From: an uncultured Eubacteriales bacterium
GTDB taxonomy: Bacteria > Bacillota > Clostridia > Christensenellales > Aristaeellaceae
Reading direction: 5' to 3'
Length of the DNA: 64,000 nt
Assembly (NCBI GenBank): GCA_902799465.1
Contig: CADCAS010000001.1
Location: 80,055 to 144,054, forward strand
Shown: in pieces, positions 36,062 through 56,994 of the stretch
Layout: each line of letters begins with the position of its first letter
Position numbering within the stretch: the stretch's first letter is position 1
Notes under the pieces: model-generated
What the model was told of the DNA's origin: nothing
The model's input: the letters and a program-made list of their open reading frames with translations, nothing else
Databases searched by the model: none
Translations under genes and position numbers: made by a program

Positions 36062-36063
36062 TC

Positions 36064-37617: not shown

Positions 37618-37884
37618 ATGGTGGACGTGGATTACATCCGCAGGTTTGCGGGCGCCGATCCGGAGGACGATGCCCTGCTGGAATCCATGCGGGACGCCGC
37701 GGTGGAATGGTATGAAAAGGCGGGCGTGCCCAGGACGACGGAAGGGGCGCTTTACGCCTTTTGGGTGGCGAATTTAGCGGCCTGGATGTATGACAACCGG
37801 GGCAATGCCGACGCGCAGGCCGCGATCCCGGCCTACATTGTCACCAGCGTCCACCAGTTACGCCCTGCGGGAGGTTCCACATGA
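37618..37884 (+). CDS. head-tail connector (gp6-like)
   Basis: Synteny plus VDYIRRFAGADPEDDALLESMRDAAVEWYEKAG; GAGGTG RBS 6 nt before the ATG at 37618. Confidence 0.7.
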   Translation: MVDVDYIRRFAGADPEDDALLESMRDAAVEWYEKAGVPRTTEGALYAFWVANLAAWMYDNRGNADAQAAIPAYIVTSVHQLRPAGGST

Positions 37885-38997: not shown

Positions 38998-39016
38998 TTT
39001 ATAGGAGGGTAATAAA

Positions 39017-39640: not shown

Positions 39641-39652
39641 GGAGAACGATCA

Positions 39653-40036: not shown

Positions 40037-40269
40037 GCCGGGAGGACGACCACACCTTCCCCTGGCTTGAGCTGTATTCCGGGGCGCTGGAGGTGGGAAT
40101 GGACCCGGCAACGTTCTGGGCATCCAGCCCGCGGGCGGTGTTTCTGGTGATTCGGGAAAGGCGACGGAGGACCTCATCCGTCTCGCGCTATGCGCGATCC
40201 ACCTTCCCCAGAGGGGAAGGCAAAGGACGACCGGCGAAGGTGCGGCTGAACAGATTGCCGCACCCGTGA
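40021..40269 (+). CDS. -1 frameshift extension of the tail assembly chaperone (gpT-like); no start codon of its own
   Basis: The -1 frame is open from 40021 (a TGA lies at 40018-20) and overlaps the last 16 nt of the chaperone gene. Hand translation KPSSVGREDDHTFPWLELYSGALEVGMDPATFWASSPRAVFLVI... Confidence 0.6.
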   Translation, partial: KPSSVGREDDHTFPWLELYSGALEVGMDPATFWASSPRAVFLVIRERRRRTSSVSRYARSTFPRGEGKGRPAKVRLNRLPHP

Positions 40270-40280
40270 GGATTGCAGAA

Positions 40281-40317
40281 GGAGGAACGTTTTAAGTGGC
40301 GTTCCTCCATTTTTTTT
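40281..40317 (+). terminator. rho-independent terminator immediately after the chaperone genes
   Basis: GGAGGAACG ... CGTTCCTCC stem, then ATTTTTTTT. Confidence 0.7.
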
Positions 40318-40333
40318 GTAAGGGGGCGATGCT

Positions 40334-41110
40334 GTGATTGTGGGCAGCACGGGCTTTTCTTTTGGCGGCGTGCACAGCCGGGACGACATGGGGCTGATCT
40401 ACGCGGAGAAGGACGGCCACGTCATGATCCCGGAGATCAAGCGCAACGCCTACAGCATCGCCGGCATGAGCGGCACGGTGCTGATGCCCGGCGAGGCCTG
40501 GCAGACGTTCTTTTTGGAGGGAACGCTCTACCCCGCGGAGGAGCCGCGCACGCTGGCGGACGCCCAGGCGCTGCTTCGGGACATCGTTGCCTGGCTGACC
40601 GCCGGGCGGCAGCGGCTGATCTTCGACTATGAGCCGGGGGTCTACTACCTGGCGGAGATCTCCACGGCCAGCAAGTACAGCCTGCGCAACTGGTTCGGCG
40701 GCGAGCTGCCGATCCGGTTCACGGTGCAGCCGTTCGCGTACAGCGTGGAGGAGCGATCGAGCACCGTGGAGACCGCCTCGAGCAGCGCCACGGTCCAGCT
40801 GAACGTCGAGACCGGCCAGAGGGCGCCGCTGAAGCTGACGATCGAAAACACCGGCACGGCAGCCATCACGCGGGTGACGATCCAGGGCATCACTCTGAAG
40901 AACATGAACCTCGCCCACGGGCAGACGCTGGTGATCGACTGCGAGCCGCCCATGGGGGCGACGGTCGGCAATGAGAGCGCCATGCAGTATGCCGCGGCCT
41001 TCGCGCCGGTCATGCTGGACAACGGCGTGAACAGGATCCCGGTATCGCTGTCCTACGGCGGCGGCACGGTGCGGGCGAGGATCACGGCTTCGGCGAGGGG
41101 GCGGTGGTAA
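40334..41110 (+). CDS. distal tail protein (Dit, siphovirus tail family)
   Basis: GTG start; FSFGGVHSRDDMGLIY...GTLYP...IRFTVQPFAYS pattern. Confidence 0.75.
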   Translation: MIVGSTGFSFGGVHSRDDMGLIYAEKDGHVMIPEIKRNAYSIAGMSGTVLMPGEAWQTFFLEGTLYPAEEPRTLADAQALLRDIVAWLTAGRQRLIFDYEPGVYYLAEISTASKYSLRNWFGGELPIRFTVQPFAYSVEERSSTVETASSSATVQLNVETGQRAPLKLTIENTGTAAITRVTIQGITLKNMNLAHGQTLVIDCEPPMGATVGNESAMQYAAAFAPVMLDNGVNRIPVSLSYGGGTVRARITASARGRW

Positions 41111-43285: not shown

Positions 43286-43306
43286 TTGAGAGGAGGACTA
43301 AAGAAC

Positions 43307-46300
43307 ATGGCAGACAATGAGAACAATGGCGTTCAGACTATACACGGTTTGAGCGTGGAGCAGAGCCTGCTGGGCGCCGTGAACGACGCGGCTACCCAGG
43401 AGCCCGACGAGGAATATGAGATCATCGCCGTGGAGGATCTGGAGCGGGTGAAGCTGGGCCGGCAGGGCGAGAACGAGACCCAGACCGTGCGCATCGACTG
43501 CAATGAATGGCTGGTGCAGCTCCAGGGGTGCACCTTCATGGTGGTGGCGCTGCGGCCCGGCGAGACGGAGCTGTACGTGCCGGACATCACGGTTTCCAAC
43601 GGACTGATCACCTGGCCCATCACAGCGCAGGACACCGCCTGCTCCGGCGCGGGCCGGGCGGAGGTGCGCGCGCTCAAGGGCGACGCGGTGAAGAAATCCA
43701 AGCTGTTCCGCACCTGGATCGAGCCCGCCCTGGAGGGCGCCATCGGCACGCCGGTGACCCCGCCCAACTGGGTAAAGGAGACGAAGGAAGCCCTCGACCG
43801 GGCCAACACCCTGATGGCGGACGCGCTGGCGGCTGCCAACGAGGCCAACGAAGCGGCGGAGAACCTGGACGACGAGGTGGCTGCCGCCAAGACCGACGCC
43901 CTGGACGCCATCGCGGCGGCAAAGACTGACGCGCAGGAAGCGGCGGACGCGACGCTTACGGACATCGCGGAGGCCCGCGACGCGGGCCTGGACGCCATTG
44001 ACGCGGCCCAGGCGGCGGCTGTGGCGGACGCTGCGGAGGCCATGAACACGGCGAAGGACGACGCTGTGGCGGCGGGAGAAGCGGCCCTGGAGGCCGCCAA
44101 GGTGGCGAAGCTGGAGGAAATCGCGGAAGCCAAGACCAACGCGGAGCAGATCGCGGCGGCGGCGGTGGAAATCGCCGAGGACGCCAACGCCAACGCCGTG
44201 CAGGCGCTGGAAAAGGCCACCAACGCCGAGAACGATTCCGCGACCTACGCGACGGACATTGACGAGCTGAAGTCTGGGATGCAGCGCTATAACCTGGAGA
44301 GCGGCAGCTACTTCGGCGGCGTATTCCTGGACGAGGACACCAACACGCTGTACTTCACCGACAAAAACGGCAGGGTCATTGCCGAGGTGGAGAACATCGG
44401 ACGCGGCGGCGGCGGCGGCGGTGGCGGCGACGACAGCGGCAGCAACAGCAAGATCCACATGGACAACATCAGCGGCTGGCAGTCCAAGACACTGGCGCGG
44501 AAGAAGGACGAGGCCGTCCCCAGCTGCCCGGTGACGCTGCAGTGGTCGTCCATTGAGAACGAGTTGCCGACCGGCAACGGCACGCTGCGGGTCATGGTCA
44601 ACGACAAGACCGAGGCCATGCTGGAGGTGCAGCAGGGCACTGTGGTGGTGGACGTAGCCGGGTATCTGAAGACCGGCTCCAACATGCTAGACTTCACGGT
44701 ATACGACATCTACGGCAAAAACCGCACCTGCCGCTGCTCGGTGGACGTCAAGGAGATGTACCTGGAGAGCACCCACGACAACACCCAGCCCCAGAAGGGC
44801 GCTTTTGCGTTCGCATACACGCCCTTCGGCAGCGTGCGCAAGCTCGTCCACTTCGAGATGGACGGCACGGAGCTGGGCACCGTGGAGACCTCCGTCAACG
44901 GACACCAGCAGAGCTACACCATCCCGAAGCAGACCCACGGGGCGCATGTGCTGCGCGTGTGGTTTGAGGCTGAGATCAACGGTCAGACGGTTCTGTCCAA
45001 TACGCTGTATTACGAGATCATCTGCATTGACCCGCTGAGCACCGCGCCGATCATCGTCTCCAACTTTGACCGCTCCACCGTGTCCCAGTATGAGACGCTG
45101 ACCATTGAATACAACGTCTATGACCCCATGCGCCTGGAAGCGCCGGTCACCATCGACGTGGACGGGACTCAGGTCGCGAGCCTGACCGCCAGCCGCGAGA
45201 CGCAGACCTTCACCTACCGGGTGAGCCGCGCCGGAGCGCTGGCCATCGCCATCAAGAGCGGCGAGACTACAAAGACCCTTGACCTGACGGTGACCGAGTC
45301 CGACGTGCACCCGGAGGCCGTGACCGACCAGCTGAGCCTGTACCTGGACGCCGCAGGCCGCAGCAATTCCGAAACCAACCCGGCAGTGTGGGAATACGGC
45401 AGTGGCGCGAGCAAGATCGCGGCGACGTTTACCGGCTACAACTGGACGCGGGACGGCTGGCTGCTGGATGAGAACGCCCTGACCTGCCTGCGCACGATGG
45501 GCGGCGGCAAGGTGACAATCCCCGCGCTGGTCTACGGCAGGGACTTCCGCTCCAGCGGCAAGACCATTGAAATTGAGTTCAAGAGCCACAACGTGCTGGA
45601 TTACGACAGCCCCATCATCAGCTGCATGAGCGGCAACAGGGGCTTTGAAATCTATGCCGACCACGCGGTATTCAAGAGCGCCCGCGCAGAGGTGAGCACC
45701 CGGTTCGCTACTGACAAGCGGATCCGGCTGACGCTGGCCGTGGAGCCTCAAAACGACTACCGGCTGGTATACCTGTACATCGACGGTATATATCAGAGCA
45801 TTTCCCAGTACTCCACCACCGACAGCTTCCAGCAGGCGGAGCCCGTGGGCATCACCGTGGGCGACAATGCCCGCTGCGGCGTGGACTTGTACAACGTTCG
45901 CGTGTATGACCGCTATCTGACCGGCGACGAGGTGCTCATGAACTACATCGCCGATCGGCAGGACGCCTTCGAGATGCTGGAGCTGTACCAGCGCAACGAC
46001 ATCTACGAAAACGGCCAGATCGCCATCAGCAGGCTGCCGAAAGACCTGCCCTACGCCGTTTTGACCGGCCCGGAGTCCCCGCAGTACAAGGGCGACAAAA
46101 AGACTGTGAGCATGGTCTACGACGAGCCCGCCAACAGCGCACGGCACCTGGTGGCCCAGGGCGTGGTCGTGAACGTGCAGGGCACCAGCTCCCAGTATTA
46201 CGCTGTCAAGAATCTGAAGATCACCTTCAAGGAAGGTGCGACGGTGAACGGGCGGCTGGTGATGGGCTTCACCATCCGGGACGGCAGCATCATGGTGGAC

Positions 46301-49300
46301 ACGTTTACACTGAAGGCGGACGTGGCCTCCTCGGAGAGCGCCAACAACATTGTGCTGGCGAAGCTGTTTGACGACCTGTCCCAGGAGCTGGGCATCCTGA
46401 CCCCGCCCCAGAAAAAGAACCGGGCCGTGCGGCAGGGCATGGACGGCTTCCCCTGTGCTGTGTTCTGGGATTATGGCGACGGCCCCGTGTTCATCGGCAA
46501 GTACAACTTCAACAACGACAAGGGTACCCCGGAAACCTTCGGCTTTGCGGATGGTGACGAGGTGTGGGACGTGCGCAACTTCGACAGCCAGCTTTCCAAG
46601 TTCCGCACGAACGTGTTCGGCGACAGCTGGACGGACGATTATGAGTCCATCTTCCCGGAGGACTACTTCGACAGCACCCGGCTGCAGGCCATGACGGACT
46701 TCATCTACGGCACCTGGCAGGAGAACGCCAGCGGTAACGCGCTGCCGGAGGCCGTGACCTATGATGGCGTGAGCTACGACCACGACACCGCCGCCTACCG
46801 CCTGGCGAAATTCAAGGCCGAGTACGGCGACTGGTATGACCTGGACAATGCGGCGTTTTTCTACGTGTTCACGCTGGTCATGCTGCTGGCGGACAACCGG
46901 CAGAAAAACGAGCACCTGGCCTGGTATGACGATATCAAAAGGTGGTGGGAGCTGCCCTACGACTTTGACACCGCGCTGGGCACCGACAACCTGGGCCGAC
47001 TGACCTTTGAATACTGGATGGAGGATATTGACCAGGTCGGCGGCAAGAACATCTTCAACGGCCAGGACAACGTGAAATGGCAGAACTACCGGCAGGCGTT
47101 CTGGGCTCGCTGCTGCGCTATGTATCAGCGGATGCGCTCTACCGGCAAGTTTTCGGCGGAGTACATCGCCACACTTATCGACGTCTGGCAGGGAAGCTGG
47201 CCGGAGGCCATGTGGAACGAGGATGGCGAGTACAAGTACACCAACCCGCTGCGCAGGGACGGCATCACCACCTATCTGTCCATGGCGCTGGGCAGCAAGA
47301 AAGGCCAGCGCTACGACTTCCTGGTGTGGCGGTTTGCCTACTGTGACAGCCTGTTTGACGCGGGTGACGCGCTCCAGACCATCATGTTCCGGCCCTACTT
47401 CCACATCACGGAGGCGCAGCGGGCCAGCGGCGACTACGACGTGACGGTGGAACTCTACAAAAAGGGCTACGTCAAGCTGCTGTGGGACGACACCGCCACG
47501 GGCGAGCGCCTGGTGGGCAACACGCTGACCTGCCAGTGCGAGAACCCCTACACGGACGCCAACCAGGCCGTGTGCAACCTGCACAGCGCCAAGATGATAA
47601 AGGACATCCGGGGCCTCGAAAAGCTGAACGTGCAGTATTTTGACGGCTCCAAGGCCGAGAACCTCCAGGCCATCCGACTGGGCAGCCAGGAGGAGGGCTA
47701 CGTCAACGAAATGACCACCGAGGTATCGGCGGGCGCGAACAGGAAGCTGACTCTGGTCGAGCTGACCGGGTGCGTGAACTTCGGCACCGGCGACCAGAAG
47801 GTGCTGACGCTGACCCAGTGCCCGAACCTGGAAAAGGTCTACGCGACCCGGACGGCGCTCCAGGGCGTTGACCTGCCCAACGGCGGCGTGCTGAACACGC
47901 TGAAGCTGCCTGCGACCACCAGCAGCCTGGTGATCCGCAACCAGCCCCGGCTGACGGACGCGAACCTGACGCTGGCGGGCTGGGACAACATCGACCAGCT
48001 CTGGCTTGAGAACATGAGCGGCCTGGACACCAAGGCCATATTCAACCGGGTGCCCGTGGGCACCGCCGTGCGCATTACGGGCTTCACCTGGGAGGTGACC
48101 GGCGCAGCGGAAATTGACACCATCATGGACAGGCTGGACACCATGCGCGGTATCAGCATCAACGGCCAGGGGCAGAGCGAGGAAGTGGACGACGCGCAGA
48201 TGAGCGGCACCATTCACGCCAGCGCCCTGCGCGGCGACGACATCGCCCGGTGGAAGGAGCGCTATCCCACCATCAACGTGACTGCCGACCACACCTCCTC
48301 CACCAAGACCTTCAAGAGCTGGGACGGTTCTACGACCGTGGGGACGGTGGAGTATGCCGACGGCAGGCCCGTGACGGCGCTGCCGAGTGTCCCGGCGAGG
48401 ACGGAGACCGCCCAGTACACCTTCACGGCGGTGGGCTGGAATACTGCGGAGGACGCCCAGACCGCGAACTTTGACGCGAGCACCGTCAACGACAGCGACC
48501 TGACCCTGTATGCCGCTTACAGCCGCACGGTGCGCAGTTATCCCATCACCTGGGCCAACGACGACAACAGCCAGCTGGACAGCGAGACCTACCAGTACGG
48601 CCAGCGGCCCAGCTATAAGAAGGGCACGCCTGTGAGCGCGGTGGACAGCAGCAGGCCGTTCGTGTCCTGGACGCCCACCATTGTGGATGTGACCGGGCCT
48701 GCGACCTACAAGGCGAGCTACATTCCGATTTACACCGCGACCTTCGTGAGGGCTGCGGAGGACGGCGGCGGGACGCTGGGAACCAAGAATTACCAGGACG
48801 GCCAGACGGTGACGGACGACGGCATCACGACGCCCACCAGCACCCGCGAGGGTTACACCTTCAGCGGGTGGACGCCTGCCCTGGGTGTGATCCACGCGAA
48901 CACGACCTACACGGCGAAGTTCAAAGCGCCCAGCGACGCCCCGACGGCGACCACTGCCGACGGCGCTTATGGCGTGGAGTGGGACTACAACGCCAGCGCC
49001 ACCACGCTGACCAGGAAGGGCCTTGCGGCGAGCTTCAGCAACCCGACGCCCGCCACGGCGGTGGACGGCAGCGGCTCCTCGCCCTTTGACACCATCGCGC
49101 CCTGGAAGGACATGAAGCGCTTCAACGTCGTGAGAGGCGCGGCGTCTGATTCGCAGAATCAGCCGTCCGCGGTTTCCGGCGACGCCGGAAACTCGGAATC
49201 CCAAGGGGATTCCGACCTTTGGACGCTGGTGCCCGACACCGACGCGAGCTTCGACGAGGCCGCCAACGACACGGTGGTGTACATCCCCGAGTTCTACTAC

Positions 49301-50095
49301 ACCGCCTACAAGGACACGACCAACAAGAAGTGGCTGTGGGCCATCAGCCCGACTCAGCTTCCGGGCTACAAGAAACACCCCGGCAGCGGCTGCTATGTGG
49401 GCCGCTTCCACACCGGCGGCGACAGCTCTGCGGTGTATTCCAAGGGCGGCGTGGCCCCGCTGGTGAGCACCACCCGCGCCAACTTCCGCACCTACAGCAA
49501 GGCCAAGGGCAACGGCTGGCACCAGATCGACCTGGCCACCTGGTCCGCCATCCAGCTGCTCTACCTGGTGGAGTTTGCCAACTGGCACAGCCAGGACCAG
49601 CTGGGCACCGGCCAGAATACCGGCAGCATCAAGGCCACCGGCGCGACCACCGGCGCAGTCTACCACACCCTCAAGCGCAGCGGCGCCAGCAACATGTACC
49701 GCTGGATCGAGAATCCGTTCAGCAATGTGCTGACGTGGGTGGACGGCTTTGTGGCCAACAACCGGGCGGCCTATGTCAGCACCGACATGGCCAGCTACGG
49801 CGAGAGCACCAGCGGCATGGAGGCCGCGGGCATCACGCTGCCCAGCAGCGAGATGATCACCGGCCTGGGCTACAGCGAGAAATGCGCCTGGGCGTTTATC
49901 CCGGACACCGCAAGCGGCGGCAGCGCGACCACTTATGTCACTGACCGCGTGTACTCCGACGCCGGCGTGCGGCTGGTGGCCGTTGGCGGCAACTACTACT
50001 CCAACGACCACTGTGGCGTGTTCTACTTCGGCGCGGATTGGAGCGTCGCCGGAGCCAGCGCCAGCCTGGGCTCCCGTCTCCTTTATAAGCCCTGA
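43307..50095 (+). CDS. giant tail fibre / receptor-binding protein (2262 aa), DGR target with a C-type-lectin-fold C-terminus
   Basis: GAGGAGGA RBS. Ala-rich coiled coil, poly-Gly hinge, LamG-like, LRR-like and Listeria-Bacteroides-type repeats. C-terminal ...GGNYYSNDHCGVFYFGADW... carries the VR. Confidence 0.88.
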   Translation: MADNENNGVQTIHGLSVEQSLLGAVNDAATQEPDEEYEIIAVEDLERVKLGRQGENETQTVRIDCNEWLVQLQGCTFMVVALRPGETELYVPDITVSNGLITWPITAQDTACSGAGRAEVRALKGDAVKKSKLFRTWIEPALEGAIGTPVTPPNWVKETKEALDRANTLMADALAAANEANEAAENLDDEVAAAKTDALDAIAAAKTDAQEAADATLTDIAEARDAGLDAIDAAQAAAVADAAEAMNTAKDDAVAAGEAALEAAKVAKLEEIAEAKTNAEQIAAAAVEIAEDANANAVQALEKATNAENDSATYATDIDELKSGMQRYNLESGSYFGGVFLDEDTNTLYFTDKNGRVIAEVENIGRGGGGGGGGDDSGSNSKIHMDNISGWQSKTLARKKDEAVPSCPVTLQWSSIENELPTGNGTLRVMVNDKTEAMLEVQQGTVVVDVAGYLKTGSNMLDFTVYDIYGKNRTCRCSVDVKEMYLESTHDNTQPQKGAFAFAYTPFGSVRKLVHFEMDGTELGTVETSVNGHQQSYTIPKQTHGAHVLRVWFEAEINGQTVLSNTLYYEIICIDPLSTAPIIVSNFDRSTVSQYETLTIEYNVYDPMRLEAPVTIDVDGTQVASLTASRETQTFTYRVSRAGALAIAIKSGETTKTLDLTVTESDVHPEAVTDQLSLYLDAAGRSNSETNPAVWEYGSGASKIAATFTGYNWTRDGWLLDENALTCLRTMGGGKVTIPALVYGRDFRSSGKTIEIEFKSHNVLDYDSPIISCMSGNRGFEIYADHAVFKSARAEVSTRFATDKRIRLTLAVEPQNDYRLVYLYIDGIYQSISQYSTTDSFQQAEPVGITVGDNARCGVDLYNVRVYDRYLTGDEVLMNYIADRQDAFEMLELYQRNDIYENGQIAISRLPKDLPYAVLTGPESPQYKGDKKTVSMVYDEPANSARHLVAQGVVVNVQGTSSQYYAVKNLKITFKEGATVNGRLVMGFTIRDGSIMVDTFTLKADVASSESANNIVLAKLFDDLSQELGILTPPQKKNRAVRQGMDGFPCAVFWDYGDGPVFIGKYNFNNDKGTPETFGFADGDEVWDVRNFDSQLSKFRTNVFGDSWTDDYESIFPEDYFDSTRLQAMTDFIYGTWQENASGNALPEAVTYDGVSYDHDTAAYRLAKFKAEYGDWYDLDNAAFFYVFTLVMLLADNRQKNEHLAWYDDIKRWWELPYDFDTALGTDNLGRLTFEYWMEDIDQVGGKNIFNGQDNVKWQNYRQAFWARCCAMYQRMRSTGKFSAEYIATLIDVWQGSWPEAMWNEDGEYKYTNPLRRDGITTYLSMALGSKKGQRYDFLVWRFAYCDSLFDAGDALQTIMFRPYFHITEAQRASGDYDVTVELYKKGYVKLLWDDTATGERLVGNTLTCQCENPYTDANQAVCNLHSAKMIKDIRGLEKLNVQYFDGSKAENLQAIRLGSQEEGYVNEMTTEVSAGANRKLTLVELTGCVNFGTGDQKVLTLTQCPNLEKVYATRTALQGVDLPNGGVLNTLKLPATTSSLVIRNQPRLTDANLTLAGWDNIDQLWLENMSGLDTKAIFNRVPVGTAVRITGFTWEVTGAAEIDTIMDRLDTMRGISINGQGQSEEVDDAQMSGTIHASALRGDDIARWKERYPTINVTADHTSSTKTFKSWDGSTTVGTVEYADGRPVTALPSVPARTETAQYTFTAVGWNTAEDAQTANFDASTVNDSDLTLYAAYSRTVRSYPITWANDDNSQLDSETYQYGQRPSYKKGTPVSAVDSSRPFVSWTPTIVDVTGPATYKASYIPIYTATFVRAAEDGGGTLGTKNYQDGQTVTDDGITTPTSTREGYTFSGWTPALGVIHANTTYTAKFKAPSDAPTATTADGAYGVEWDYNASATTLTRKGLAASFSNPTPATAVDGSGSSPFDTIAPWKDMKRFNVVRGAASDSQNQPSAVSGDAGNSESQGDSDLWTLVPDTDASFDEAANDTVVYIPEFYYTAYKDTTNKKWLWAISPTQLPGYKKHPGSGCYVGRFHTGGDSSAVYSKGGVAPLVSTTRANFRTYSKAKGNGWHQIDLATWSAIQLLYLVEFANWHSQDQLGTGQNTGSIKATGATTGAVYHTLKRSGASNMYRWIENPFSNVLTWVDGFVANNRAAYVSTDMASYGESTSGMEAAGITLPSSEMITGLGYSEKCAWAFIPDTASGGSATTYVTDRVYSDAGVRLVAVGGNYYSNDHCGVFYFGADWSVAGASASLGSRLLYKP
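49944..50083 (+). repeat. DGR variable repeat (VR)
   Basis: 140-nt match to 50214-50353 with 17 mismatches, all opposite TR adenines. Confidence 0.9.
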
Positions 50096-50102
50096 CGGGG
50101 GA

Positions 50103-50122
50103 CCGGGGGCCGCAGCCCCCGG
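50103..50122 (+). promoter_or_regulatory. GC hairpin 8 nt downstream of the VR gene stop (DGR target-recognition-type element)
   Basis: CCGGGGGC-CGCA-GCCCCCGG: 8-bp GC stem, 4-nt loop. Confidence 0.6.
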
Positions 50123-50213
50123 AAACGTGGCCCAGCTACAGAGAGGATGATTGCTATGAAGTAGCAGCTTAATAAAAGGGATTACCCATGCAGTGGGCCA
50201 GGCTATGCGTTTC

Positions 50214-50353
50214 ACCGCGTGAACTCCAACACCGGCGTGCAGCTGGTGGCCGTTGGCGGCAACTACAACTCCAACGACAACTATGGCGTGTTCTACTTCA
50301 ACGCGAATTGGAACGTCACCGAAACCAACGCCAACCTGGGCTCCCGTCACCTT
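50214..50353 (+). repeat. DGR template repeat (TR), noncoding
   Basis: A-rich (AAC-codon-rich in VR register) invariant copy. Bracketed by the inverted repeat ATTACCCATGCA (50181-92) / TGCATGGGTAAT (50378-89). Confidence 0.9.
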
Positions 50354-50380
50354 GTTTAATGATCCATGTTTTAGCATTGC

Positions 50381-50590
50381 ATGGGTAATTCCGCAGCACT
50401 CGCTGAAAATTCTACCGACAGGACGGGGTTTAGTAGGACGGGGCCGGACTTTGAGTCTGGCCCCGTTTCGGACGACCCCGAGGTAAACAAGGAGGCATTA
50501 GAGCTGGCGCTGAACGGCATCGAGACGGACGACGGGCAGCTGGAGAGAGCAGAGGAACAATTCAGGAAAGACGTGGAAGGATGGTGCTAA
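50381..50590 (+). CDS. doubtful small acidic ORF
   Basis: The only in-frame ATG sits inside the TR-flanking inverted repeat. The first half has non-coding-like codon usage and crosses a hairpin (50441-50465). The second half looks coding and follows an AAGGAGG at 50489. Confidence 0.25.
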   Translation: MGNSAALAENSTDRTGFSRTGPDFESGPVSDDPEVNKEALELALNGIETDDGQLERAEEQFRKDVEGWC

Positions 50591-51630
50591 GGATGAAAGC
50601 GGTGGAAAGACTGATCGCAACGGCTGAAGCGGAGCTCGGCTACCTGGAGAAAAAGAGCAATAAGGACCTGGACAGCAAGACGGCCAACGCCGGCAGCGCG
50701 AATTATACGAAGTATAACCGCGACCTGAAGAACTGGACCGGCGTGGGCAGCCTGAGCGCCCAGTGGTGCCAGGCGTTTGTGGACTGGTTATTTATTATGG
50801 CCTTCGGCGTGGAAGTTGCGAAGAAGCTGCTGGGCAAATTCACCAACTACACACCCACCGGGTCCGACGCCTTCAAGAAGCGGGACGCCTACATCAAGCG
50901 GGGCAAGGGAAAGCCGAAGCGCGGCGACGTGATTTATTTTTACTCCAGCGCGAAGGGCAGGATCGGCCACGTGGGCATCGTGACGGATGTCACCAGCTCC
51001 AAGGTGTACACCATCGAAGGCAACACCAGCGGGGCCAGCAGCCTGGTGACGAACGGCGGCGGCGTCAAAAAGAAGAGTTACAGCCTGTCCAGCACCTACA
51101 TCGACGGCTATGGCAGCGTGGATTATTCCGTGGTGGACGGTCTGGACTTCAAGGCCCCGGAAGTGGTGGCCGTGAAGCTGGGCGACCGGCTGCTGAAGAA
51201 CGGCAGCGAGGGCGACGACGTGAAAGAGCTCCAGGCGGCGCTGATCGGCCTGGGCTTCAGCTGCGGCAGCTATGGCGCGGACGGCGAATATGGGGATTGC
51301 ACTGAGATGGCCGTACGGGCCTTCCAGGCGGCCCACGGCTGCGAAGTCGATGGAGAATATGGCCCGGAGACGCACGCGGCCCTGGAGGCCGCCGTGGACG
51401 CCCAGAGCGCCGGAGCGGACCCGGAGGCCGCCCAGTATGTGCAAATTGAAAAGGGTAAAAAGTGCTACATAAGGACCGGCCCCGGCACGGAGAACAAGGC
51501 CCTGGGCGTGGCGCACAGCCTGGACAAGCTGCAATACGCGGGCGAGACCGCGGAAAACGGCTGGCACCGGGTCAAGTACGGGAACGGGCTGGCCTGGGTA
51601 TCCGGCAAGTACGGGAAGCTGGTGGCGTGA
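50581..51630 (+). CDS. endolysin (CHAP/NlpC-P60-type amidase + PG_binding_1 + SH3-like)
   Basis: QWCQAFVDW (catalytic Cys context), GHVGIV...IEGNT, LKNGSEGDDVKELQAAL, and C-terminal SH3-like GWHRVKYGNGLAWV. Confidence 0.88.
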   Translation: MVLRMKAVERLIATAEAELGYLEKKSNKDLDSKTANAGSANYTKYNRDLKNWTGVGSLSAQWCQAFVDWLFIMAFGVEVAKKLLGKFTNYTPTGSDAFKKRDAYIKRGKGKPKRGDVIYFYSSAKGRIGHVGIVTDVTSSKVYTIEGNTSGASSLVTNGGGVKKKSYSLSSTYIDGYGSVDYSVVDGLDFKAPEVVAVKLGDRLLKNGSEGDDVKELQAALIGLGFSCGSYGADGEYGDCTEMAVRAFQAAHGCEVDGEYGPETHAALEAAVDAQSAGADPEAAQYVQIEKGKKCYIRTGPGTENKALGVAHSLDKLQYAGETAENGWHRVKYGNGLAWVSGKYGKLVA

Positions 51631-51776
51631 TGCAGCGGGAAATATTGGTGGCCGTGGCCTGGGCGGACCTGATCCTATGCGAAGTCGGCAAAATCCTGGC
51701 CATGGTGATCCCCGCGGCGCTGATTGGAGCGCTGGCGGCGCTGGTGTTTGAGTATCAGCGGAGAAAGCGGAGGTGA
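51630..51776 (+). CDS. small membrane protein (lysis accessory?)
   Basis: 48 aa with one TM helix and a basic tail RRKRR; its ATG overlaps the endolysin stop. Confidence 0.4.
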   Translation: MQREILVAVAWADLILCEVGKILAMVIPAALIGALAALVFEYQRRKRR

Positions 51777-51833
51777 TGGCCTATGAGGGGATAGAGCCAT
51801 GGGCGACCATAAAACAAAAGGGAGGAATAGAAA

Positions 51834-52274
51834 ATGGATAAGGTATGGTCCGAGGTAGTGAAGATCATGGCCGCAGGCGTGGGCATCATCGCCGGATTCT
51901 ATGGCGGATGGACGCCGGGCAGTCGGGTGCTGGTGGTGCTGATGGTGGTGGACTACATCACCGGCCTGGCCTGCGCCCTGACCGGGCACAGCACAAAGAC
52001 CGAAAGCGGCCACTTTTGGTCGCAGGTGGCCTTTGTGGGATTGCTCAAAAAGGGCGTTATTATGCTGGTCATCCTGGTGGCCGCGCAGCTGGACGGCGTG
52101 ATTAACGGCGGCGAGGGCGTGACCCTGTTCCGGTCCGCCGCTGAATTTTTCTATATTGCCAGTGAGGGCCTGTCCATCGTGGAGAACGCGGGTCTCCTGG
52201 GTGTGCCCGTGCCCAAGGGCATCAAGCAGGCCCTGGAGGCGCTACGGGATAAGAACGACAAGGACAAAGACTAA
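51834..52274 (+). CDS. holin (phage_holin_4-like)
   Basis: 146 aa, 3-4 TM helices, charged C-terminus; VVDYITG...FYIASEGLSIVENAGLLG. Confidence 0.85.
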   Translation: MDKVWSEVVKIMAAGVGIIAGFYGGWTPGSRVLVVLMVVDYITGLACALTGHSTKTESGHFWSQVAFVGLLKKGVIMLVILVAAQLDGVINGGEGVTLFRSAAEFFYIASEGLSIVENAGLLGVPVPKGIKQALEALRDKNDKDKD

Positions 52275-52285
52275 CCAAACAAGCG

Positions 52286-52315
52286 GCGCTCATCCGAAAG
52301 GGTGGGCGCTTTTTT
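52286..52315 (+). terminator. rho-independent terminator after the holin gene
   Basis: GCGCTCATCC-GAAA-GGGTGGGCGC (with G-U pairs), then TTTTTT. Confidence 0.6.
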
Positions 52316-52342
52316 CTGTTTTAGAAGAAAGGGGGGATAGCT

Positions 52343-55300
52343 GTGCCGAACAACAGCGAGGGCATCGGAACGAAAGTAAGCGTTAAGGGCGATAAAGAGT
52401 ATAAAAGCGCATTACAGCAAATCAGCAGGCAGCTGACCGTTCTTAATACCGACATGAAGGCCAGCCAATCCGCTTTTGGTGCCCAGGCTGAGACCATGGA
52501 CGGTATGCACGACCGCCTGGAAAAACTCAATGAAATATATGAGGTCCAGGCGAAAAAGGTGGAGCTGATCCGGGAACAGCTGGAGAAGGCCAAGGCGGAA
52601 TACGGCGAGAACAGCAAGCAGGCGGATGATCTGCAAATTGCCCTGAACAAGGCCACGGCGCAGATGAACGGGACGGCGAACCAGATCACCACCACGGAAC
52701 AGGGTCTGAAGACGCTGGCGGACGCCCAGCATCTGGCCGGGGACGCGACGGACGCTTCCTCGATGACCTTGAAAGAGGCGGAGCAGGCACTGAAGAACGC
52801 CGGCGAGGGCGCTGAGGAGATGGCCGGTTCTGTGGGCGACGCCGGGGACGCCGCGGGCGAGGTCGGCGACGCCGCAGAGGACGCCAGCGGCGGCGTGGGC
52901 AGCTTTGCAGAGTCGCTGCTGGAGGCGGCAGGGGCCGTGGGCGGCGGCTTCCTGGACGGCGTGCAGGGGCTTCTGGGCGCGCTGGGCAGCATTGGCGGGG
53001 CGTGCGTGGAGGCGCTGGGCGAGGCGTTTGACCTGGCAAAGGACGCGGGCAAGTATGCCGACGATCTGCTGACGCTGTCGAGCCAGGTGGGCGTGGACAC
53101 AGACAAGCTCCAGCAGTGGCAGTATGCCAGCAACTTCATCGACACGTCGGTGGAAACGATCACCGGAAGCATGACGAAGCTGACGAAGAAGATGGACTCC
53201 GCGCAGGAGGAGGAGAAGAAGAACGCGGAGAAGTGGCAGGAGCACCTGGACAAGATCGCGCGGGGCGAGAAGGACACCTGGAGCGAGGTCACCACGGCCC
53301 GGGACGCCTTTGTGAAGCTGGGTGTTTCCTGGAAGGACTACAACGGCAACCTGCGCGACAACGAGGAGGTCTTCATGGACCTCATCGACGCGCTGGGGAA
53401 GGTCGAGAATCCGGTGGAGCGCGACGCGCTGGCCATGGAGCTGTTCGGCAAGAGCGCCAAGGAGCTCAATCCGCTGATCGAGGCCGGCAGCCGCGCTTGG
53501 CGGGAGATGGGCCAGGAAGCGGAGGCCATGGGGACGGTGTTCTCCGAGGGGAACCTCGAGATCATGGGCGGCTTCGACGACACCATGCAGATGTTCAACG
53601 CCACGGCGGACGCCATGAAGAAGACCATCGGGCTCAAGATGATCCCGATGTTCGAGCCGCTGGTGCAGGCCGCGGGCCAGAGCATGGGCAGGCTGTCGAA
53701 GGCGCTCCAGGACGGGGCGAGCCCGACGGAGCTGGCCGGTGTGCTGGACGAGGTCGCGAACAGCCTGATCGACGAGCTGACGGTGACGTTCGTGCGGCTG
53801 GACGAGATGGTGCCGGAGGCGGTGAAGGTCATTTCGCAGGTGATCAGCCATGTGGCCGAAGCGCTGCCGGAGCTGGCGCGGGTGGCGCTGCCGGGGGCGA
53901 TGAAGCTGTTGCAGGCGGTGCTGGATGGGCTGTTGCAGATCACCGGGCCGCTGGCCACGCTGGCCACGGAGCTGGTGACCACGGTGGCGGGGTTTCTGAT
54001 CGACAACCTGCCGGACATCGTGGACGCGGGCACGGATCTGTTGCTGGGGCTGGTGGACGGTATCGTGGACGCGCTTCCGGAGCTGATCCCGGCGGCGGTC
54101 GAGATGGTGGTGAAGCTGGCGGAAGGGCTGATTCAGGCCATCCCGAAGTTAGTGGAAAAGCTGCCGGAGATCGTTGATGCCATCTGGGACGGTCTGGTGA
54201 ACACGGACTGGCCGGGACTGGGCAGTGAGGTGCTGAGCTCGATCTGGGGCACGCTGGGAGCGCTGGGCGACGACCTGCTGGGGATCTTCACGGACGCCAT
54301 CACGAACATCACCGGTCTGGACTTCGCCTCCATCGGCAGCGGCATCCAGAGTGCCATCGAGGGCATTCTGGGGTCGGACGGCAGCTTCCTGTCGGGGCTG
54401 TTTTCCGACGCGCACGACGACATCGAGGGAATCGACTGGGACAAGCTGGGCGAGAACGTCGGGAAGGCCGGTTCGGCGCTGGTGAATATGACCGGCGAGG
54501 CGCTGGCGGGCGGCTTTGAGGCCGGTTATGCGCTGATCGAGAATATCGAATGGGGCAAGCTGGGTGAGACGGTCGGCAACATCGCCAACGGGCTGGTGAA
54601 TCTGACCGGCGAGGTGGCTGCGGCGGGCTTCGAGGCAGCGCACGGGCTGATCGAGGGGCTGGACTGGGAAGGCCTGGGCAAGACCGTGGGCGACGTGGGC
54701 AACGGGTTGGTGAACCTGACCGGCGAGGTCGCCGCGCAGGGGTTCCAGAACGCGCACGATCTGATCGAAAATATCGACTGGAGCGGGCTGACGGACACGC
54801 TGGCGGCGGTGCCGAACGGGCTGATCGAGCTGTCCGGCGACCTGATCGCGCAGGGTTTCCGGAATGGGCACGACCTGATCGAGAAGATCAACTGGGGCGG
54901 TCTGACGGACACGCTGGCAGCGGTGCCCAACGGTCTGATCGAGCTGAGCGGCGAGACGCTCTCCGGGGCGTTCTCGGCGGCCTATGACATCATCAGCGAC
55001 ATTCCCTGGGACGAGCTGGGGAACGAAGTCGCGGACGGCCTGGGGCGCGCCTGGGGCATCGTCAGCGGCGTTGGCGACGTGGCGCTGGGCTTGGGCGAGG
55101 GCGCGGTGATGGCCGGTCAGCAGGGCGTCGGGGCGCTGAAGGACTGGATCGCTTCATGGCGGGACGACGGCGAGGTGGAGAGCGAGGCCACGGCCGTCGG
55201 CGCGCAGGTGATCACCGACGTGGGCACCGGCGTAACCAACGAGGTGCCGCAGCTGGAGACCACCGCGCAGGAGGCCGCGGACGCGCTGCTGACGGCGATC

Positions 55301-55963
55301 CGGAATGTACTGACAGAGTCGACGGTGGAGCAGATCGGCAAGGATCTGGACGAGGACGTCTGGACCGGCGTGGTGCTGGGCGAGGACGAGCTCTTGCAGG
55401 TCGTGGCCGGGGTTGCCGGGGATTCCTTTGACGAGCTCAGGGACGCCGTGGAGGACGCCGGGTTTGCCGAGATCGGCCGGCAGATGGACAACGGGATTGT
55501 TTCAGGCATTTACGAGAACAGCCGGTACATCAAGGAGGCGGCCAGGGCGGCGGCGCAGGCGGCTTACAATGCCGCGAAGAGCGAGCTGGGGATCGCCAGC
55601 CCGTCCAAGAAGGGCGGATGGTTGGGCGAGATGTTCGACCTGGGCTTCGCCGGTGGATTGATCGACAACGCCGATGAGATCGAGAGCGCCATGGGGTATC
55701 TCAATGAGCTGACCACTGCGGAGGCTGAGCCGGTGATGGTCGGAGGGCCGATGCAGCGAGGGTTTGCTGGATTTGAGATCGATTACGGGCAGATGCGGGA
55801 GGCTTTCATTGAGGCCATCGAGGAGACCGGTGTGGGCAATATGGTGATGCAGATGGATAAGGAAGTCGTCGGCGAAACGCTGGAGCCGGTCACCAGCAGG
55901 GCCACCCGGCAGCGGCAGCAGAGGTATGTCAAGGGCAGGACGGCAAGGCTGGTGATAGGATGA
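52343..55963 (+). CDS. tail tape-measure protein (1206 aa), in a non-canonical position
   Basis: GTG start behind AAAGGGGGG. N-terminal coiled coil. TMP core LQQWQYASNFIDTS..., ALAMELFGKSAKELNPLIEAG. 38-aa tandem repeats. Confidence 0.85.
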   Translation: MPNNSEGIGTKVSVKGDKEYKSALQQISRQLTVLNTDMKASQSAFGAQAETMDGMHDRLEKLNEIYEVQAKKVELIREQLEKAKAEYGENSKQADDLQIALNKATAQMNGTANQITTTEQGLKTLADAQHLAGDATDASSMTLKEAEQALKNAGEGAEEMAGSVGDAGDAAGEVGDAAEDASGGVGSFAESLLEAAGAVGGGFLDGVQGLLGALGSIGGACVEALGEAFDLAKDAGKYADDLLTLSSQVGVDTDKLQQWQYASNFIDTSVETITGSMTKLTKKMDSAQEEEKKNAEKWQEHLDKIARGEKDTWSEVTTARDAFVKLGVSWKDYNGNLRDNEEVFMDLIDALGKVENPVERDALAMELFGKSAKELNPLIEAGSRAWREMGQEAEAMGTVFSEGNLEIMGGFDDTMQMFNATADAMKKTIGLKMIPMFEPLVQAAGQSMGRLSKALQDGASPTELAGVLDEVANSLIDELTVTFVRLDEMVPEAVKVISQVISHVAEALPELARVALPGAMKLLQAVLDGLLQITGPLATLATELVTTVAGFLIDNLPDIVDAGTDLLLGLVDGIVDALPELIPAAVEMVVKLAEGLIQAIPKLVEKLPEIVDAIWDGLVNTDWPGLGSEVLSSIWGTLGALGDDLLGIFTDAITNITGLDFASIGSGIQSAIEGILGSDGSFLSGLFSDAHDDIEGIDWDKLGENVGKAGSALVNMTGEALAGGFEAGYALIENIEWGKLGETVGNIANGLVNLTGEVAAAGFEAAHGLIEGLDWEGLGKTVGDVGNGLVNLTGEVAAQGFQNAHDLIENIDWSGLTDTLAAVPNGLIELSGDLIAQGFRNGHDLIEKINWGGLTDTLAAVPNGLIELSGETLSGAFSAAYDIISDIPWDELGNEVADGLGRAWGIVSGVGDVALGLGEGAVMAGQQGVGALKDWIASWRDDGEVESEATAVGAQVITDVGTGVTNEVPQLETTAQEAADALLTAIRNVLTESTVEQIGKDLDEDVWTGVVLGEDELLQVVAGVAGDSFDELRDAVEDAGFAEIGRQMDNGIVSGIYENSRYIKEAARAAAQAAYNAAKSELGIASPSKKGGWLGEMFDLGFAGGLIDNADEIESAMGYLNELTTAEAEPVMVGGPMQRGFAGFEIDYGQMREAFIEAIEETGVGNMVMQMDKEVVGETLEPVTSRATRQRQQRYVKGRTARLVIG
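54420..55045 (+). repeat. about six tandem 114-bp (38-aa) repeats inside the tape-measure gene
   Basis: Unit I(D/E)W(D/G/E/S)xLGxxVGxxxNGLVNLTGExxAxGFxxxHxLIE, repeated with decreasing identity. Confidence 0.8.
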
Positions 55964-56250
55964 TGTCTGGGGATGAGAAGGTGATATTGGCTGCGGCCGT
56001 AGAACGATACGGCGAGGGCGCGCAGCTGGTCAAGTGCTGCGAAGAGTTGAGCGAGCTGGCGCATGCGATCTGCAAGCGGTTCGATGTGTCTGTGGGGTAT
56101 GAGCGCGATGGCGAGGAGGTCGTCGAGGAGATCGCCGATGTCGAGATCATGCTGGAGCAGCTGCGCGTGATCCTCCGCGTGGATCCGGAGATGGAGCAGC
56201 GATGGCGGGAGAGGAAGCTGAACAGGCTGCGGAGGCGGCTGGGTGTATAG
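55960..56250 (+). CDS. MazG-like nucleotide pyrophosphohydrolase domain protein
   Basis: EELSELAHAICK ... EEIADVEIMLEQL pattern; ATGA overlap with the TMP stop. Confidence 0.5.
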   Translation: MMSGDEKVILAAAVERYGEGAQLVKCCEELSELAHAICKRFDVSVGYERDGEEVVEEIADVEIMLEQLRVILRVDPEMEQRWRERKLNRLRRRLGV

Positions 56251-56254
56251 ACGT

Positions 56255-56289
56255 GGGAGGAAGGTCGTGTGGCCTTCCTCCCGCTTTTT
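56255..56289 (+). terminator. rho-independent terminator at the end of the rightward prophage genes
   Basis: GGGAGGAAGG ... CCTTCCTCCC perfect 10-bp stem, then GCTTTTT. Confidence 0.75.
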
Positions 56290-56677
56290 GTTTGGGGTGG
56301 CGAGCGACGGCCGGCCGGCTGACAATGGCGCAGGTGTGGGGCACTGGTGGCCTGTGAGATGGGTGTGGCGCGCCGGCCGGCTGCTATTGTTTGGCGCGAA
56401 GCGCCAGGGCTTTTCTCCTCGGCGCGCATGCGCTCGGGGTTTTTCTTTCGCCAGAAATCGCCGATTGTGAGGGGTGCGGGTGACACGGTGTGGGGAAAGC
56501 GGTCGACTTTGGAGGATTCTTTCCGCTGCCGATTATGATGGCGATGGGCCAGGTGCGAGGACGATGAGGGGTATCCCGGCCCGGGTCGGAAGTTGGAAAG
56601 GCCTCTCCCCTACACCGGGCGCATCCTAACCCTTTACAGCGTAGGACTTTGAAAAAACAGGGCGGGGCTATTCTTGA

Positions 56678-56778
56678 ATAACACATATAACACTATAAAA
56701 GGAAATGTGTTATATATCAATGATGGGCATATATTATTGAAAAGAAATCTTGCCTAACACAAACAACACTTATAACAC
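56678..56778. promoter_or_regulatory. ATAACAC/GTGTTAT repeat cluster in the right arm
   Basis: ATAACAC at 56678, 56687 and 56772; GTGTTAT at 56707; 6/7 copies at 56754 and 56763. Confidence 0.5.
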
Positions 56779-56829
56779 ATACAGAAAAATAATTATGTTC
56801 TTAGGCACATAATTATGATTGAAAAGTCT

Positions 56830-56850
56830 GGGTAACATTTATGGGTAACA
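56830..56850 (+). promoter_or_regulatory. paired GGGTAACA repeats (right arm)
   Basis: GGGTAACA at 56830 and 56843, with the same 13-bp spacing as 17701/17714. Confidence 0.45.
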
Positions 56851-56951
56851 AGTGTCGAGAAAATAGACGCAGGTTGCACAAAACACTCTTTTTTCATATC
56901 GTAATTCAATAAAATCAGACTGCAAATTACCGTTTAACGAATTATAAGCCC

Positions 56952-56994
56952 TTCGGGACCAAAAGGTCGCAGGTTCAAATCCTGTCACCTCGAC
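56952..56994 (+). repeat. attR of the prophage, doubling as the left att of the tandem element (tRNA-Pro 3' remnant)
   Basis: Exact 43-bp copy of 17565-17607. Confidence 0.92.

Follow-up and report, generated by a model that had tools for sequence, protein, structure and literature searches.

DGRs of architecture A1 (target–TR–RT, with no accessory gene) make up 29% of DGRs (Wu et al. 2018, PMC5758913). They occur in gut and rumen prophages of Oscillospiraceae/Ruminococcaceae, for example in Faecalibacterium phages (PMC5883640). The DGR of Bordetella phage BPP-1 (mtd–avd–TR–brt) has an Avd gene and, between TR and the reverse transcriptase (RT) gene, an 'Sp' region, which serves to recruit the RT and to prime cDNA synthesis. 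The target-recognition element of DGRs is a GC-rich hairpin with a 4-nt loop, located 4–34 bp after the VR and absent after the TR (PMC3240598). Remote or 'orphan' VRs, described in Treponema denticola, Legionella and cyanobacteria, have no TR of their own, the cognate TR–RT being elsewhere in the same genome (PMC4891356, PMC7517822). Finally, the RT-18 RNA motif was defined by its location beside a reverse transcriptase gene (PMC5737381).

The locus described here belongs to a rumen prophage and was analysed within a 64-kb stretch of DNA (the window). It shares with A1 DGRs a VR at the 3′ end of a tail protein gene, in a domain with a predicted FGE/C-type-lectin-like fold, a TR shortly downstream, the lack of avd, a GC hairpin past the VR and adenine-only mismatches at about 50% of the TR adenines. 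The structured spacer RNA is also present, although the RT that should follow it is found in the window's relatives only, the window itself having lost the gene through a 1136-nt deletion. The similarities with BPP-1 comprise the tail-fibre target, the IMH-type boundary, a hairpin with an 8-bp stem and a 4-nt loop, a spacer RNA between TR and RT (Rfam RT-10 in BPP-1, RT-18 here) and, in the relatives, an RT homologous to Brt. However, Avd is absent from the lineage, the spacer RNA is of another family, the loop is CGCA rather than GRNA and the RT is deleted. As in remote VRs, no RT adjoins the VR, but here TR and spacer RNA do adjoin it, and this spot is visibly the one from which the RT was excised. 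The situation also resembles ORF-less group II introns and SINEs, in which RNA and cis elements are kept, the enzyme gene is gone and autonomous siblings live in the community; unlike in those elements, there is no evidence of continued mobilisation of the window cassette. Overall, the locus represents a known system in a decayed state and reveals no new mechanism.

The VR/TR pair and its target protein

The prophage is delimited by an exact 43-bp direct repeat, its assignment resting also on tRNAs and structural genes. Its ends, the target gene and the repeats are the following:

17565..56994, no strand: prophage with the DGR cassette, 43-bp exact direct repeat at both ends
17565-17607: attL, the 3′ end of tRNA-Pro CGG
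17767-19125: integrase of the prophage
43286..50095, + strand: DGR target gene, 2269-aa tail/receptor-binding protein (from the ORF list)
49220-50092, + strand: variable-protein domain, C-terminal 291 aa of the target
49944..50083, + strand: VR, at the 3′ end of the target ORF
50066-50083, + strand: VR 3′ end, CTGGGCTCCCGTCTCCTT, IMH-like boundary
50103..50122, + strand: GC-rich hairpin/cruciform after the VR, 8-bp stem and 4-nt loop CGCA
50214..50353, + strand: TR, 34 adenines
56952-56994: attR, second copy of the 43-bp repeat

The cassette carries the DGR signature. VR and TR are 140-nt direct repeats that disagree at 17 positions, without exception (17/17) at TR adenines (13 A>G, 3 A>T and 1 A>C) and at codon position 1 or 2. 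Half of the TR adenines are changed in the VR (17/34), while none of the 106 non-A positions is mismatched; the cis elements that retrohoming requires are all intact. The same restriction to TR adenines is found in two related contigs, L018 and L006 (15/15 in each).

The TR lies 118 nt after the target stop codon, and the hairpin begins 19 nt past the VR end. Folding of the DNA gives −13.8 kcal/mol (z −2.4) for the hairpin, and no counterpart was found downstream of the TR when the equivalent stretch was folded (z 0.08). The element agrees in position and shape with the target-recognition element of Guo 2011 (PMC3240598), its CGCA loop departing from the GRNA consensus. The hairpin was rejected as a terminator because no T-run follows the stem.

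The C-terminal domain of the target matches phrog_5302, annotated 'tail protein' (1.7e-49). Its AlphaFold model (pLDDT 95.7) is closest in the PDB to the DGR variable protein TaqVP (5VF4, E 8e-12), with FGE enzymes, Mtd and TvpA next, so that the VR occupies the 3′ end of a target whose domain is predicted to be C-type-lectin/FGE-like.

Loss of the RT gene

The sequence-only reading had found neither RT nor Avd in cis, and the sensitive profile search that it named as a possible refutation likewise detects neither in the 64-kb window. Pfam scans of all the large ORFs of the window returned no RVT_1, tblastn with the cognate RT of L006 found no RT in it (best E 0.19), and neither an RT nor a fragment of one emerged from its 1077 six-frame segments with a family HMM run with filters off (best E 1.5), built from up to 120 family RTs of 330–480 aa plus BPP-1 Brt. 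No RT shows up either among the Pfam domains marked over about 12 kb of the neighbouring element; within the window, prophage, host flank and the tandem element as far as it is visible are all without one. In a Pfam scan of 50 further ORFs, almost all small, no Avd family is among the best 25 of 46 matching families (down to E about 1e-5), and phmmer with BPP-1 Avd found none in the 64-kb window (best E 2.4). The cassette accordingly shows no DGR-clade RT gene adjoining the TR, the site at which its relatives have one, and no accessory protein (Avd, HRDC, MSL or CH1), Avd being absent from the RT-bearing relatives as well.

Downstream of the TR, the window contains:

50394..50494, + strand: RT-18 structured RNA (Rfam RF03021, 64.7 bits against a gathering score of 41.3)
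50502..50503, + strand: deletion junction, where 1136 nt of the RT-bearing siblings are missing
50503..50590, + strand: small-ORF 3′ remnant, 29 codons, ending in LALNGIETDDGQLERAEEQFRKDVEGWC and a stop codon (from alignments with relatives)
50593..51630, + strand: endolysin, CHAP/PG_binding_1/SH3 (Pfam; start as called in public assemblies)
51834..52274, + strand: holin, Phage_holin_4_1 (Pfam, 1.3e-32)

The RT-18 match is full-length (model positions 1–84), with scores of 41.8–75.2 bits in the relatives, and the RNA folds stably over 50354-50500 (−58.4 kcal/mol, z −4.2). It is the TR-to-RT spacer RNA and presumably corresponds to the Sp region of BPP-1. At its end, AAGGAGG (50489-50495) is the ribosome-binding site of the lost RT gene. 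A pattern search of representative genome contigs for RT-18 returned RUG14340 as its sole match. In the window, RT-18 is followed by the junction and then by the endolysin; in L002, L003 and L005–L008 it is next to an RT gene, with an ORF of RT size directly behind it, a comparison that leaves aside L004 and L009–L010 (not checked or off the contig end). The open frame at 50381-50590, a 69-aa ORF already regarded as doubtful, is present but was rejected as a gene: it consists of RT-18 RNA and the 3′ remnant of the small ORF. The endolysin begins 227 nt (listed ATG, 50581) or 239 nt (called start, 50593) after the TR, in keeping with the earlier estimate of about 230 nt.

An RT between the fibre and lysis genes, which the sequence-only reading suggested looking for in related prophages, is indeed found in sibling phages from rumen metagenomes. 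Their order is target–VR–TR–RT-18–RT–small ORF–endolysin–holin. The RT comes immediately after RT-18 in ten contigs (L002, L003, L006, L007, L008, L034, L035, L036, L039 and L040), and the order small ORF–CHAP endolysin–holin is common to L002, L006, L035, L036 and L039. The RT of L003 passes RVT_1, while that of L006 matches phrog_1423 at 9.5e-93 and is 26% identical to Brt (E 1e-16). The small ORF, whole in L002, L006, L034, L035 and L036 and in agreement over the aligned portion of L007, encodes 55 aa in the relatives, overlaps the 3′ end of the RT gene and abuts the endolysin start.

The RT gene was removed from the window cassette by a 1136-nt deletion, and very recently, because L036 agrees with the window at 657/659 non-VR bases as far as 50502, beyond which it has the segment that the window lacks. 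L036 positions 1-799 align to window 49704-50502, and its positions from 1936 onwards to the window from 50503 onwards. The same breakpoints are obtained with L006, in which 4189-5464 align to 49226-50502 and 6601-7783 to 50503-51680. The missing segment takes in the entire RT ORF together with small-ORF codons 1–26; the deletion begins 2 nt ahead of the RT start codon and ends in small-ORF codon 27. The endolysin sets the right-hand bound on what a deletion can take away.

The remaining cis elements are almost unchanged with respect to the siblings. From the TR to the junction, L036 and the window differ at 2/289 bases, whereas the two VRs show 19 differences, all of them at TR-A sites. The TR of L006 is identical to that of the window (140/140), against 13% divergence between the target genes, and the two RT-18 RNAs differ at 3/109; L034 and L035 have the window's TR over the 123 and 125 bases that they hold. 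The description of the TR as intact and recently used carries little weight, since no decay is expected yet with only 2/659 non-VR differences from an RT-bearing sibling. The lesion looks days to years old and not like a maintained lineage.

Of the two alternatives initially posed, an RT–Avd pair acting in trans and a very recent loss of the RT module, the loss is now shown directly, but without Avd as part of the module. Avd was not lost from this cassette, because the RT-bearing relatives, which run target–TR–RT with the same short VR–TR spacer, are also without it; it was never in the cassette of this lineage. For a trans-acting pair there is no positive evidence, a single identical VR being found in all six RT-less assemblies with the window junction.

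A second RT-less allele

L018 is a second RT-less allele. Compared with L036, which comes from the same sample, it is collapsed at a CATG microhomology. As both its left and its right breakpoints differ from those of the window, L018 is an independent deletion and the RT has been lost at least twice in the lineage. The left breakpoints of the two alleles closely flank the RT start codon, one on each side and 5 nt from the other, and both deletions spare the RNA. This could hint at selection to keep the RNA; alternatively, the clustering may reflect selection to keep the ribosome-binding site and the small-ORF 3′ end before the endolysin. In L018, the RT ATG appears to be fused in frame to ...MEGWC and a stop, directly ahead of the lysin start.

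The window junction (50502|50503) is also present in at least five other metagenome contigs, which run unbroken through VR and TR, whereas four short RT-bearing contigs (L034, L035, L039 and L040) end in or just upstream of the TR. The exact 345-aa endolysin product occurs in six contigs, with every context shown being RT-less. The VR is identical in 6/6 assemblies with the window junction; this is weak evidence of inactivity, because these assemblies, apparently from one cattle-rumen cohort, show 100% identity in the rest of their sequence as well and are consensus sequences, in which microdiversity is hidden. RT-bearing siblings with 0–2 differences in TR and RT-18 are present in the same samples as RT-less alleles (L018 with L036 in ERZ28614206; L020 with L039 in ERZ27280472).

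Alternative explanations and significance

The window cassette is probably an accessory-less DGR of the target–TR–RT type that has just lost its RT gene, with a VR that is now frozen. In the intact relatives, a late transcript would contain the TR and then RT-18, with the RT translated from the ribosome-binding site at the RT-18 end. The enzyme would copy the TR into adenine-mutagenised cDNA, with which the VR in the 3′-terminal part of the tail-fibre gene would then be overwritten, the IMH-like boundary and the GC hairpin guiding the exchange. The deletion in the window took the enzyme and left VR, hairpin, TR and RT-18 untouched, and these look perfect only because decay has had too little time to set in. 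Such a cassette cannot diversify alone, its receptor-binding sequence probably remaining at the last written state, although the RT of a co-infecting sibling with near-identical TR and RT-18 could in principle still rewrite the VR. With the RT gene deleted, the receptor-binding tail protein is therefore most likely fixed in sequence.

It is unlikely that the cassette works as a non-autonomous DGR in which a sibling phage's RT uses the TR/RT-18 RNA, or just the VR, in trans, so that RT-less users persist. Components of the BPP-1 DGR placed on plasmids do act on separate targets (PMC3240598, PMC12875486). The VR boundary, hairpin, TR and RT-18 are all intact, with the near-identity to L006 and L036 given above, but this is expected anyway at 2/659 divergence from an RT-bearing sibling. 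Both independent deletions spared the RNA module, for which the ribosome-binding site and small-ORF end before the endolysin offer another account. The sharing of samples by RT-bearing and RT-less alleles does not place them in the same cell, and no VR variation exists in the six assemblies sharing the junction. Slimmer still is the chance of the broader proposal that RT-less cassettes are maintained in this way, through recurrent enzyme-only deletions, with the receptor-binding protein rewritten whenever the phage shares a cell with an RT-bearing sibling. If true, it would imply a cheater/public-good dynamic for the diversification enzyme, in elements missed by every RT-anchored DGR survey.

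A dedicated RT encoded outside the window, on the host chromosome or another element and perhaps with an accessory protein, would make the present layout stable and normal, as with the distant RTs that serve remote VRs in Treponema, Legionella and cyanobacteria (PMC4891356, PMC7517822). This is very improbable: it is between RT-18 and the lysin that the cassette demonstrably lost an RT of its own, with a truncated small ORF left behind, which identifies a fresh lesion and not an evolved layout, and the prophage, host flank and visible tandem-element part hold no RT. Hardly any credence is left for an artefact, in which the RT would be missing by mis-assembly or the repeats would be a chance or ordinary duplication unrelated to DGRs. 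VR/TR repeats do break the assemblies of RT-bearing siblings, and the left part of L036, which has one non-A VR/TR mismatch at the polymorphic TR site, may be chimeric. However, at least five further assemblies from different assemblers contain the window junction, the microhomology at the junctions (at most 4 nt) is far below any assembler k-mer, and a chance repeat is excluded by the 17/17 adenine-specific mismatches, RT-18 and the TaqVP-like modelled fold.

As a very recent loss, the locus provides a breakpoint-resolved example of the death of a phage DGR, in a lineage with at least two RT losses and with RT-bearing siblings circulating in the same rumen samples. Why these deletions recur we can only infer; it can now be asked whether RT loss is selected, for instance by locking in a working receptor specificity or shedding a costly mutator, and whether RT-less cassettes are revived in trans. 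To our knowledge, every DGR survey locates its loci through the RT gene, and RT-less TR/VR cassettes are therefore systematically missed. The locus also gives the Rfam RT-18 motif a role: in one DGR lineage it is the spacer RNA between TR and RT.

The displaced tape-measure gene, previously taken as a companion rearrangement in the same prophage, is unrelated to RT loss: a 61%-identity homologue also follows the holin in the RT-bearing L035.

The target, the template and the RNA behind them

The DGR cassette of the prophage is built on a 140-nt direct repeat, whose variable copy (variable repeat, VR; 49944-50083) forms the final codons of a 2269-aa ORF and whose template copy (template repeat, TR) lies at 50214-50353. 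All 17 mismatches between the copies fall on an A in the downstream copy and all 17 on codon positions 1 or 2, while none of the 106 non-A positions is mismatched. The VR is altered at 17 of the 34 template adenines, which resembles the density of diversified VRs in Bacteroides, typically about half of the available positions (bioRxiv 10.1101/2024.11.15.621889). A GC hairpin (8-bp stem, 4-nt loop) stands 19 nt 3' of the VR, and no equivalent was found 3' of the TR; such a hairpin beyond the VR, without a counterpart beyond the TR, has been described for DGR targets (PMC3240598). For the last 291 aa of the target there is a confident fold prediction (pLDDT 95.7), with the DGR variable protein TaqVP as the best PDB match, followed by FGE enzymes, Mtd and TvpA. 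The adenine-only mismatches, the hairpin and the TaqVP-like fold therefore show that the locus comprises a true DGR target and its template.

Between the TR and the endolysin gene, positions 50394-50494 match the structured RNA RT-18 (Rfam RF03021) with 64.7 bits, against a gathering score of 41.3, and fold far better than shuffled sequence (z -4.2). The 3' end of this RNA, AAGGAGG, is the ribosome-binding site of a now-missing gene. The 69-aa ORF at 50381-50590, already considered doubtful in the sequence-only reading, is a composite that contains the RT-18 stretch and is no gene. RNAs RT-1 to RT-19 were defined beside reverse transcriptase (RT) genes; the spacer between TR and brt in BPP-1 is RT-10 (PMC5737381), whereas it is RT-18 that follows the TR in the window. 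The BPP-1 spacer brings in the RT and supplies the priming adenosine, as summarised in PMC12875486. The 349-aa endolysin ORF of the window starts 12 nt later in public calls.

Loss of the reverse transcriptase

The earlier claim that the cassette has neither RT nor the accessory protein Avd in cis was upheld by every search of the window. No RVT_1 domain was detected in Pfam scans of all ORFs of at least about 250 aa, and tblastn with the cognate RT of a relative returned nothing (best E 0.19). An HMM built from up to 120 family RTs (330-480 aa) plus Brt, the BPP-1 RT, and run with filters off against all 1077 six-frame segments reached a best E of 1.5. No Avd family was present in the best 25 of 46 Pfam families (down to E ~1e-5; 50 further ORFs, almost all small), and a direct Avd search was also negative. 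None of the related RT-bearing loci has an avd between VR and TR, and the lineage falls into architecture A1, the type without an accessory gene that accounts for 29% of catalogued DGRs (PMC5758913).

Related loci were recovered through the target domain, an RT-18 sequence pattern and exact-protein look-ups. Those bearing an RT (L002, L003, L005-L008, L034-L036, L039 and L040) were recovered from viromes of the rumen, from metagenomes and from a Clostridiales MAG of rumen origin. In each of them an ORF of 361-408 aa lies directly 3' of RT-18. In L003 this ORF matches RVT_1 at 2e-8; in L006 it matches phrog_1423 'reverse transcriptase' (9.5e-93) and shares 26% identity with Brt (E 1e-16). An RT is thus found in related phages between the fibre and lysis genes, where the sequence-only reading had proposed to look for it. 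The order after the RT in the closer loci is a 55-aa ORF, a CHAP endolysin and a holin. Distant blastn of the window region against GenBank phages gave two short lysin matches only. Exact searches of IMG/VR with a VR/TR 22-mer, the junction and the RT-18 3' end yielded nothing, and only the more distant L002 and L003 are present there.

The RT-bearing contig L036 (sample ERZ28614206) locates the loss to the nucleotide. It differs from window 49704-50502 at 21 positions, namely 19 in the VR, all at TR-A sites, plus position 50331 within the TR and position 50362. No difference occurs in the 240 nt of target flank, in the 130-nt spacer or in RT-18. Beyond the junction 50502|50503, L036 carries 1136 extra nt, comprising 2 nt, the RT ORF and the first 26 codons of the small ORF, after which homology resumes at 84%. 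The RT-bearing L006 has identical breakpoints. An imperfect 14-nt repeat, in register with the junction, flanks the lost segment, with one copy, GTAAACAAGGAGGC, at the end of RT-18 and the other, GTGAACCAGCAGGC, within the small ORF; this is consistent with deletion through short homology. The change was clearly a loss, because the RT-less form has a truncated ORF and adenine mutagenesis requires an RT. Very recent loss of the RT module, one of two explanations first put forward, is therefore borne out, with 1136 nt including the RT present in L036 and absent from the window, and only 2 of 659 non-VR bases differing. The window cassette belongs to a known DGR lineage without accessory genes and has recently had its RT deleted. 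Full-text literature searches found no description of RT-deleted TR/VR cassettes.

The small ORF cut by the deletion is acidic and conserved (L036 1856-2023; L006 about 6530-6700, with the sequence MSHLQVIARLEEMLRMALDIVNQQAQLLEQHGIETESGQLERAEEQFRKDVEGWC; window remnant 50503-50590). In close RT-bearing relatives its reading frame overlaps the RT gene at the 3' end and extends to the endolysin start; the window retains a shortened copy, and a second RT-less allele, L018, has lost nearly all of it. It matched nothing in Pfam, NCBIfam or PHROG. A role as DGR accessory is the less likely reading: the ORF is missing from L003 and L005, the more remote loci with an RT, in which different small ORFs stand ahead of different lysins. 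It more probably belongs to the lysis region.

Recurrence of the deletion and use of the cassette

At least five further contigs from metagenomes (L014, L015, L016, L017 and L028) share the junction, VR and TR of the window base for base, and the exact endolysin of the window has no RT beside it in any context among the matches listed. L018 has other breakpoints: it keeps the RT start (GATCATG), joined to the last five codons of the small ORF, and relative to L036 it shows a deletion of ~1204 nt between two CATG tetranucleotides, with 100% identity on both sides (293 nt on the left, at least 100 nt on the right). Derivation of either RT-less allele from the other was rejected, as L018 has TCATG, missing from the window, and the window has ~70 nt of the small ORF that L018 lacks. 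On this comparison, in which L018 is a single scaffold, the RT was lost more than once.

At the equivalent of 50331, L036 has C in its VR (241-380) and G in its own TR (511-650), its one non-A mismatch; in L018 the VR carries G at this site. Two explanations fit: a TR mutation later than the last homing event, or a scaffold that fuses a window-type left arm with the TR-RT of another phage. Because this mismatch lies at a polymorphic TR site, L036 is possibly chimeric in its left arm as an assembly. From the TR rightwards, the RT-bearing haplotype was confirmed in two further samples (L039 at 99.9% identity, L040 with the same RT).

In the long hairpin of RT-18 (50413-50464), an A-T pair in the window, L018 and L036 is replaced by G-C in the RT-bearing L006, L034 and L035, a compensatory double change that preserves the stem. 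Since L036 bears an RT and has the A-T version, this change is older than the deletions.

The TR had also been read as intact and recently used. The absence of non-A mismatches (0/106) agrees with this, but intactness itself is uninformative, since flawless cis elements are expected when the nearest RT-bearing sibling differs so little. TR conservation was rejected as a sign of present function: the match is just as complete (140/140) with the RT-bearing L006, in which the target gene has diverged by 13%, so the constraint is older than the deletion.

The other explanation first offered, an RT-Avd pair acting in trans, is improbable in our assessment, also in the form of a non-autonomous DGR served by the RT of a sibling. 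Siblings with an RT and (near-)identical TR and RT-18 do occur in the same samples, and DGR parts act on separate targets (PMC3240598, PMC12875486). Against it, a single VR is common to all six window-type assemblies, with VR and TR assembled straight through, which points weakly to a static VR, these being consensus sequences from seemingly one cohort and identical elsewhere too. The short RT-bearing contigs L034, L035, L039 and L040 start inside or just upstream of the TR, and such breaks may reflect, at the assembly level, a VR that is hypervariable in RT-bearing populations alone. The left breakpoints of the two RT-less alleles closely flank the RT start codon, with 5 nt between them. Such clustering could reflect selection to keep the RNA, or equally selection for a ribosome-binding site and small-ORF end before the endolysin. 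The window cassette shows no new mechanism; its value lies in a breakpoint-level view of DGR decay, in RT loss that recurs alongside RT-bearing siblings, and in a functional placement of RT-18.

Prophage setting and tape-measure gene

The cassette lies in the following setting.

1-17.1 kb: host genes (queA, glgA, rluD-type synthase, spoVAD and others)
17451-17607: tRNA-Thr and tRNA-Pro
17565-17607 and 56952-56994: 43-bp direct repeat, the limits of a 39-kb siphovirus-type prophage
17767-19125: prophage integrase
Prophage gene content: terminase, portal, ClpP protease, capsid, tail genes, the 2269-aa tail protein, then endolysin and holin
56995-64000 (continued in contig L030, 1-13622): second integrative element, in tandem at the same tRNA-Pro att site
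57258-58481, minus strand: integrase of the second element

The second element has a lower GC content (48-55%) and also encodes HTH regulators, a primase zinc ribbon and an AAA_25 helicase-like protein. L030 adds ~12 kb with a primase-helicase module, an 873-aa tape-measure-like protein and a ribosomal protein S21 homologue; the element looks like a satellite or phage-derived element. The rest of it had been suggested as a possible source of an RT, and none was found over these ~12 kb.

The tape-measure gene (52343-55963, + strand; 1206 aa; PHROG tape-measure families down to 8e-40) lies 3' of the holin at the prophage right end, and the stretch from the tail chaperone (39653-40036) to the putative distal tail protein (40334-41110) contains none. 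This displacement had been taken as a further rearrangement of the same prophage. In the RT-bearing L035 a homologue with 61% identity occupies the same unusual position, so the placement is, by this comparison, a lineage trait and no companion rearrangement. A 96-aa ORF 3' of the tape-measure gene (55960-56250, + strand) matches PHROG nucleoside triphosphate pyrophosphohydrolase (MazG-like) families at 2.4e-23. A BrnT/BrnA toxin-antitoxin pair (33454-34017, - strand) lies on the opposite strand between the large terminase and portal genes. In the L014/L021 assembly (ERZ28614727 scaffold_1825; L014 1502-8262), the gene calls split the 2262-aa target gene into two ORFs that overlap, of 1369 and 903 aa, and the tape-measure protein has 1244 aa, against 1206, which suggests frameshift or repeat-length variation between otherwise identical prophage copies.
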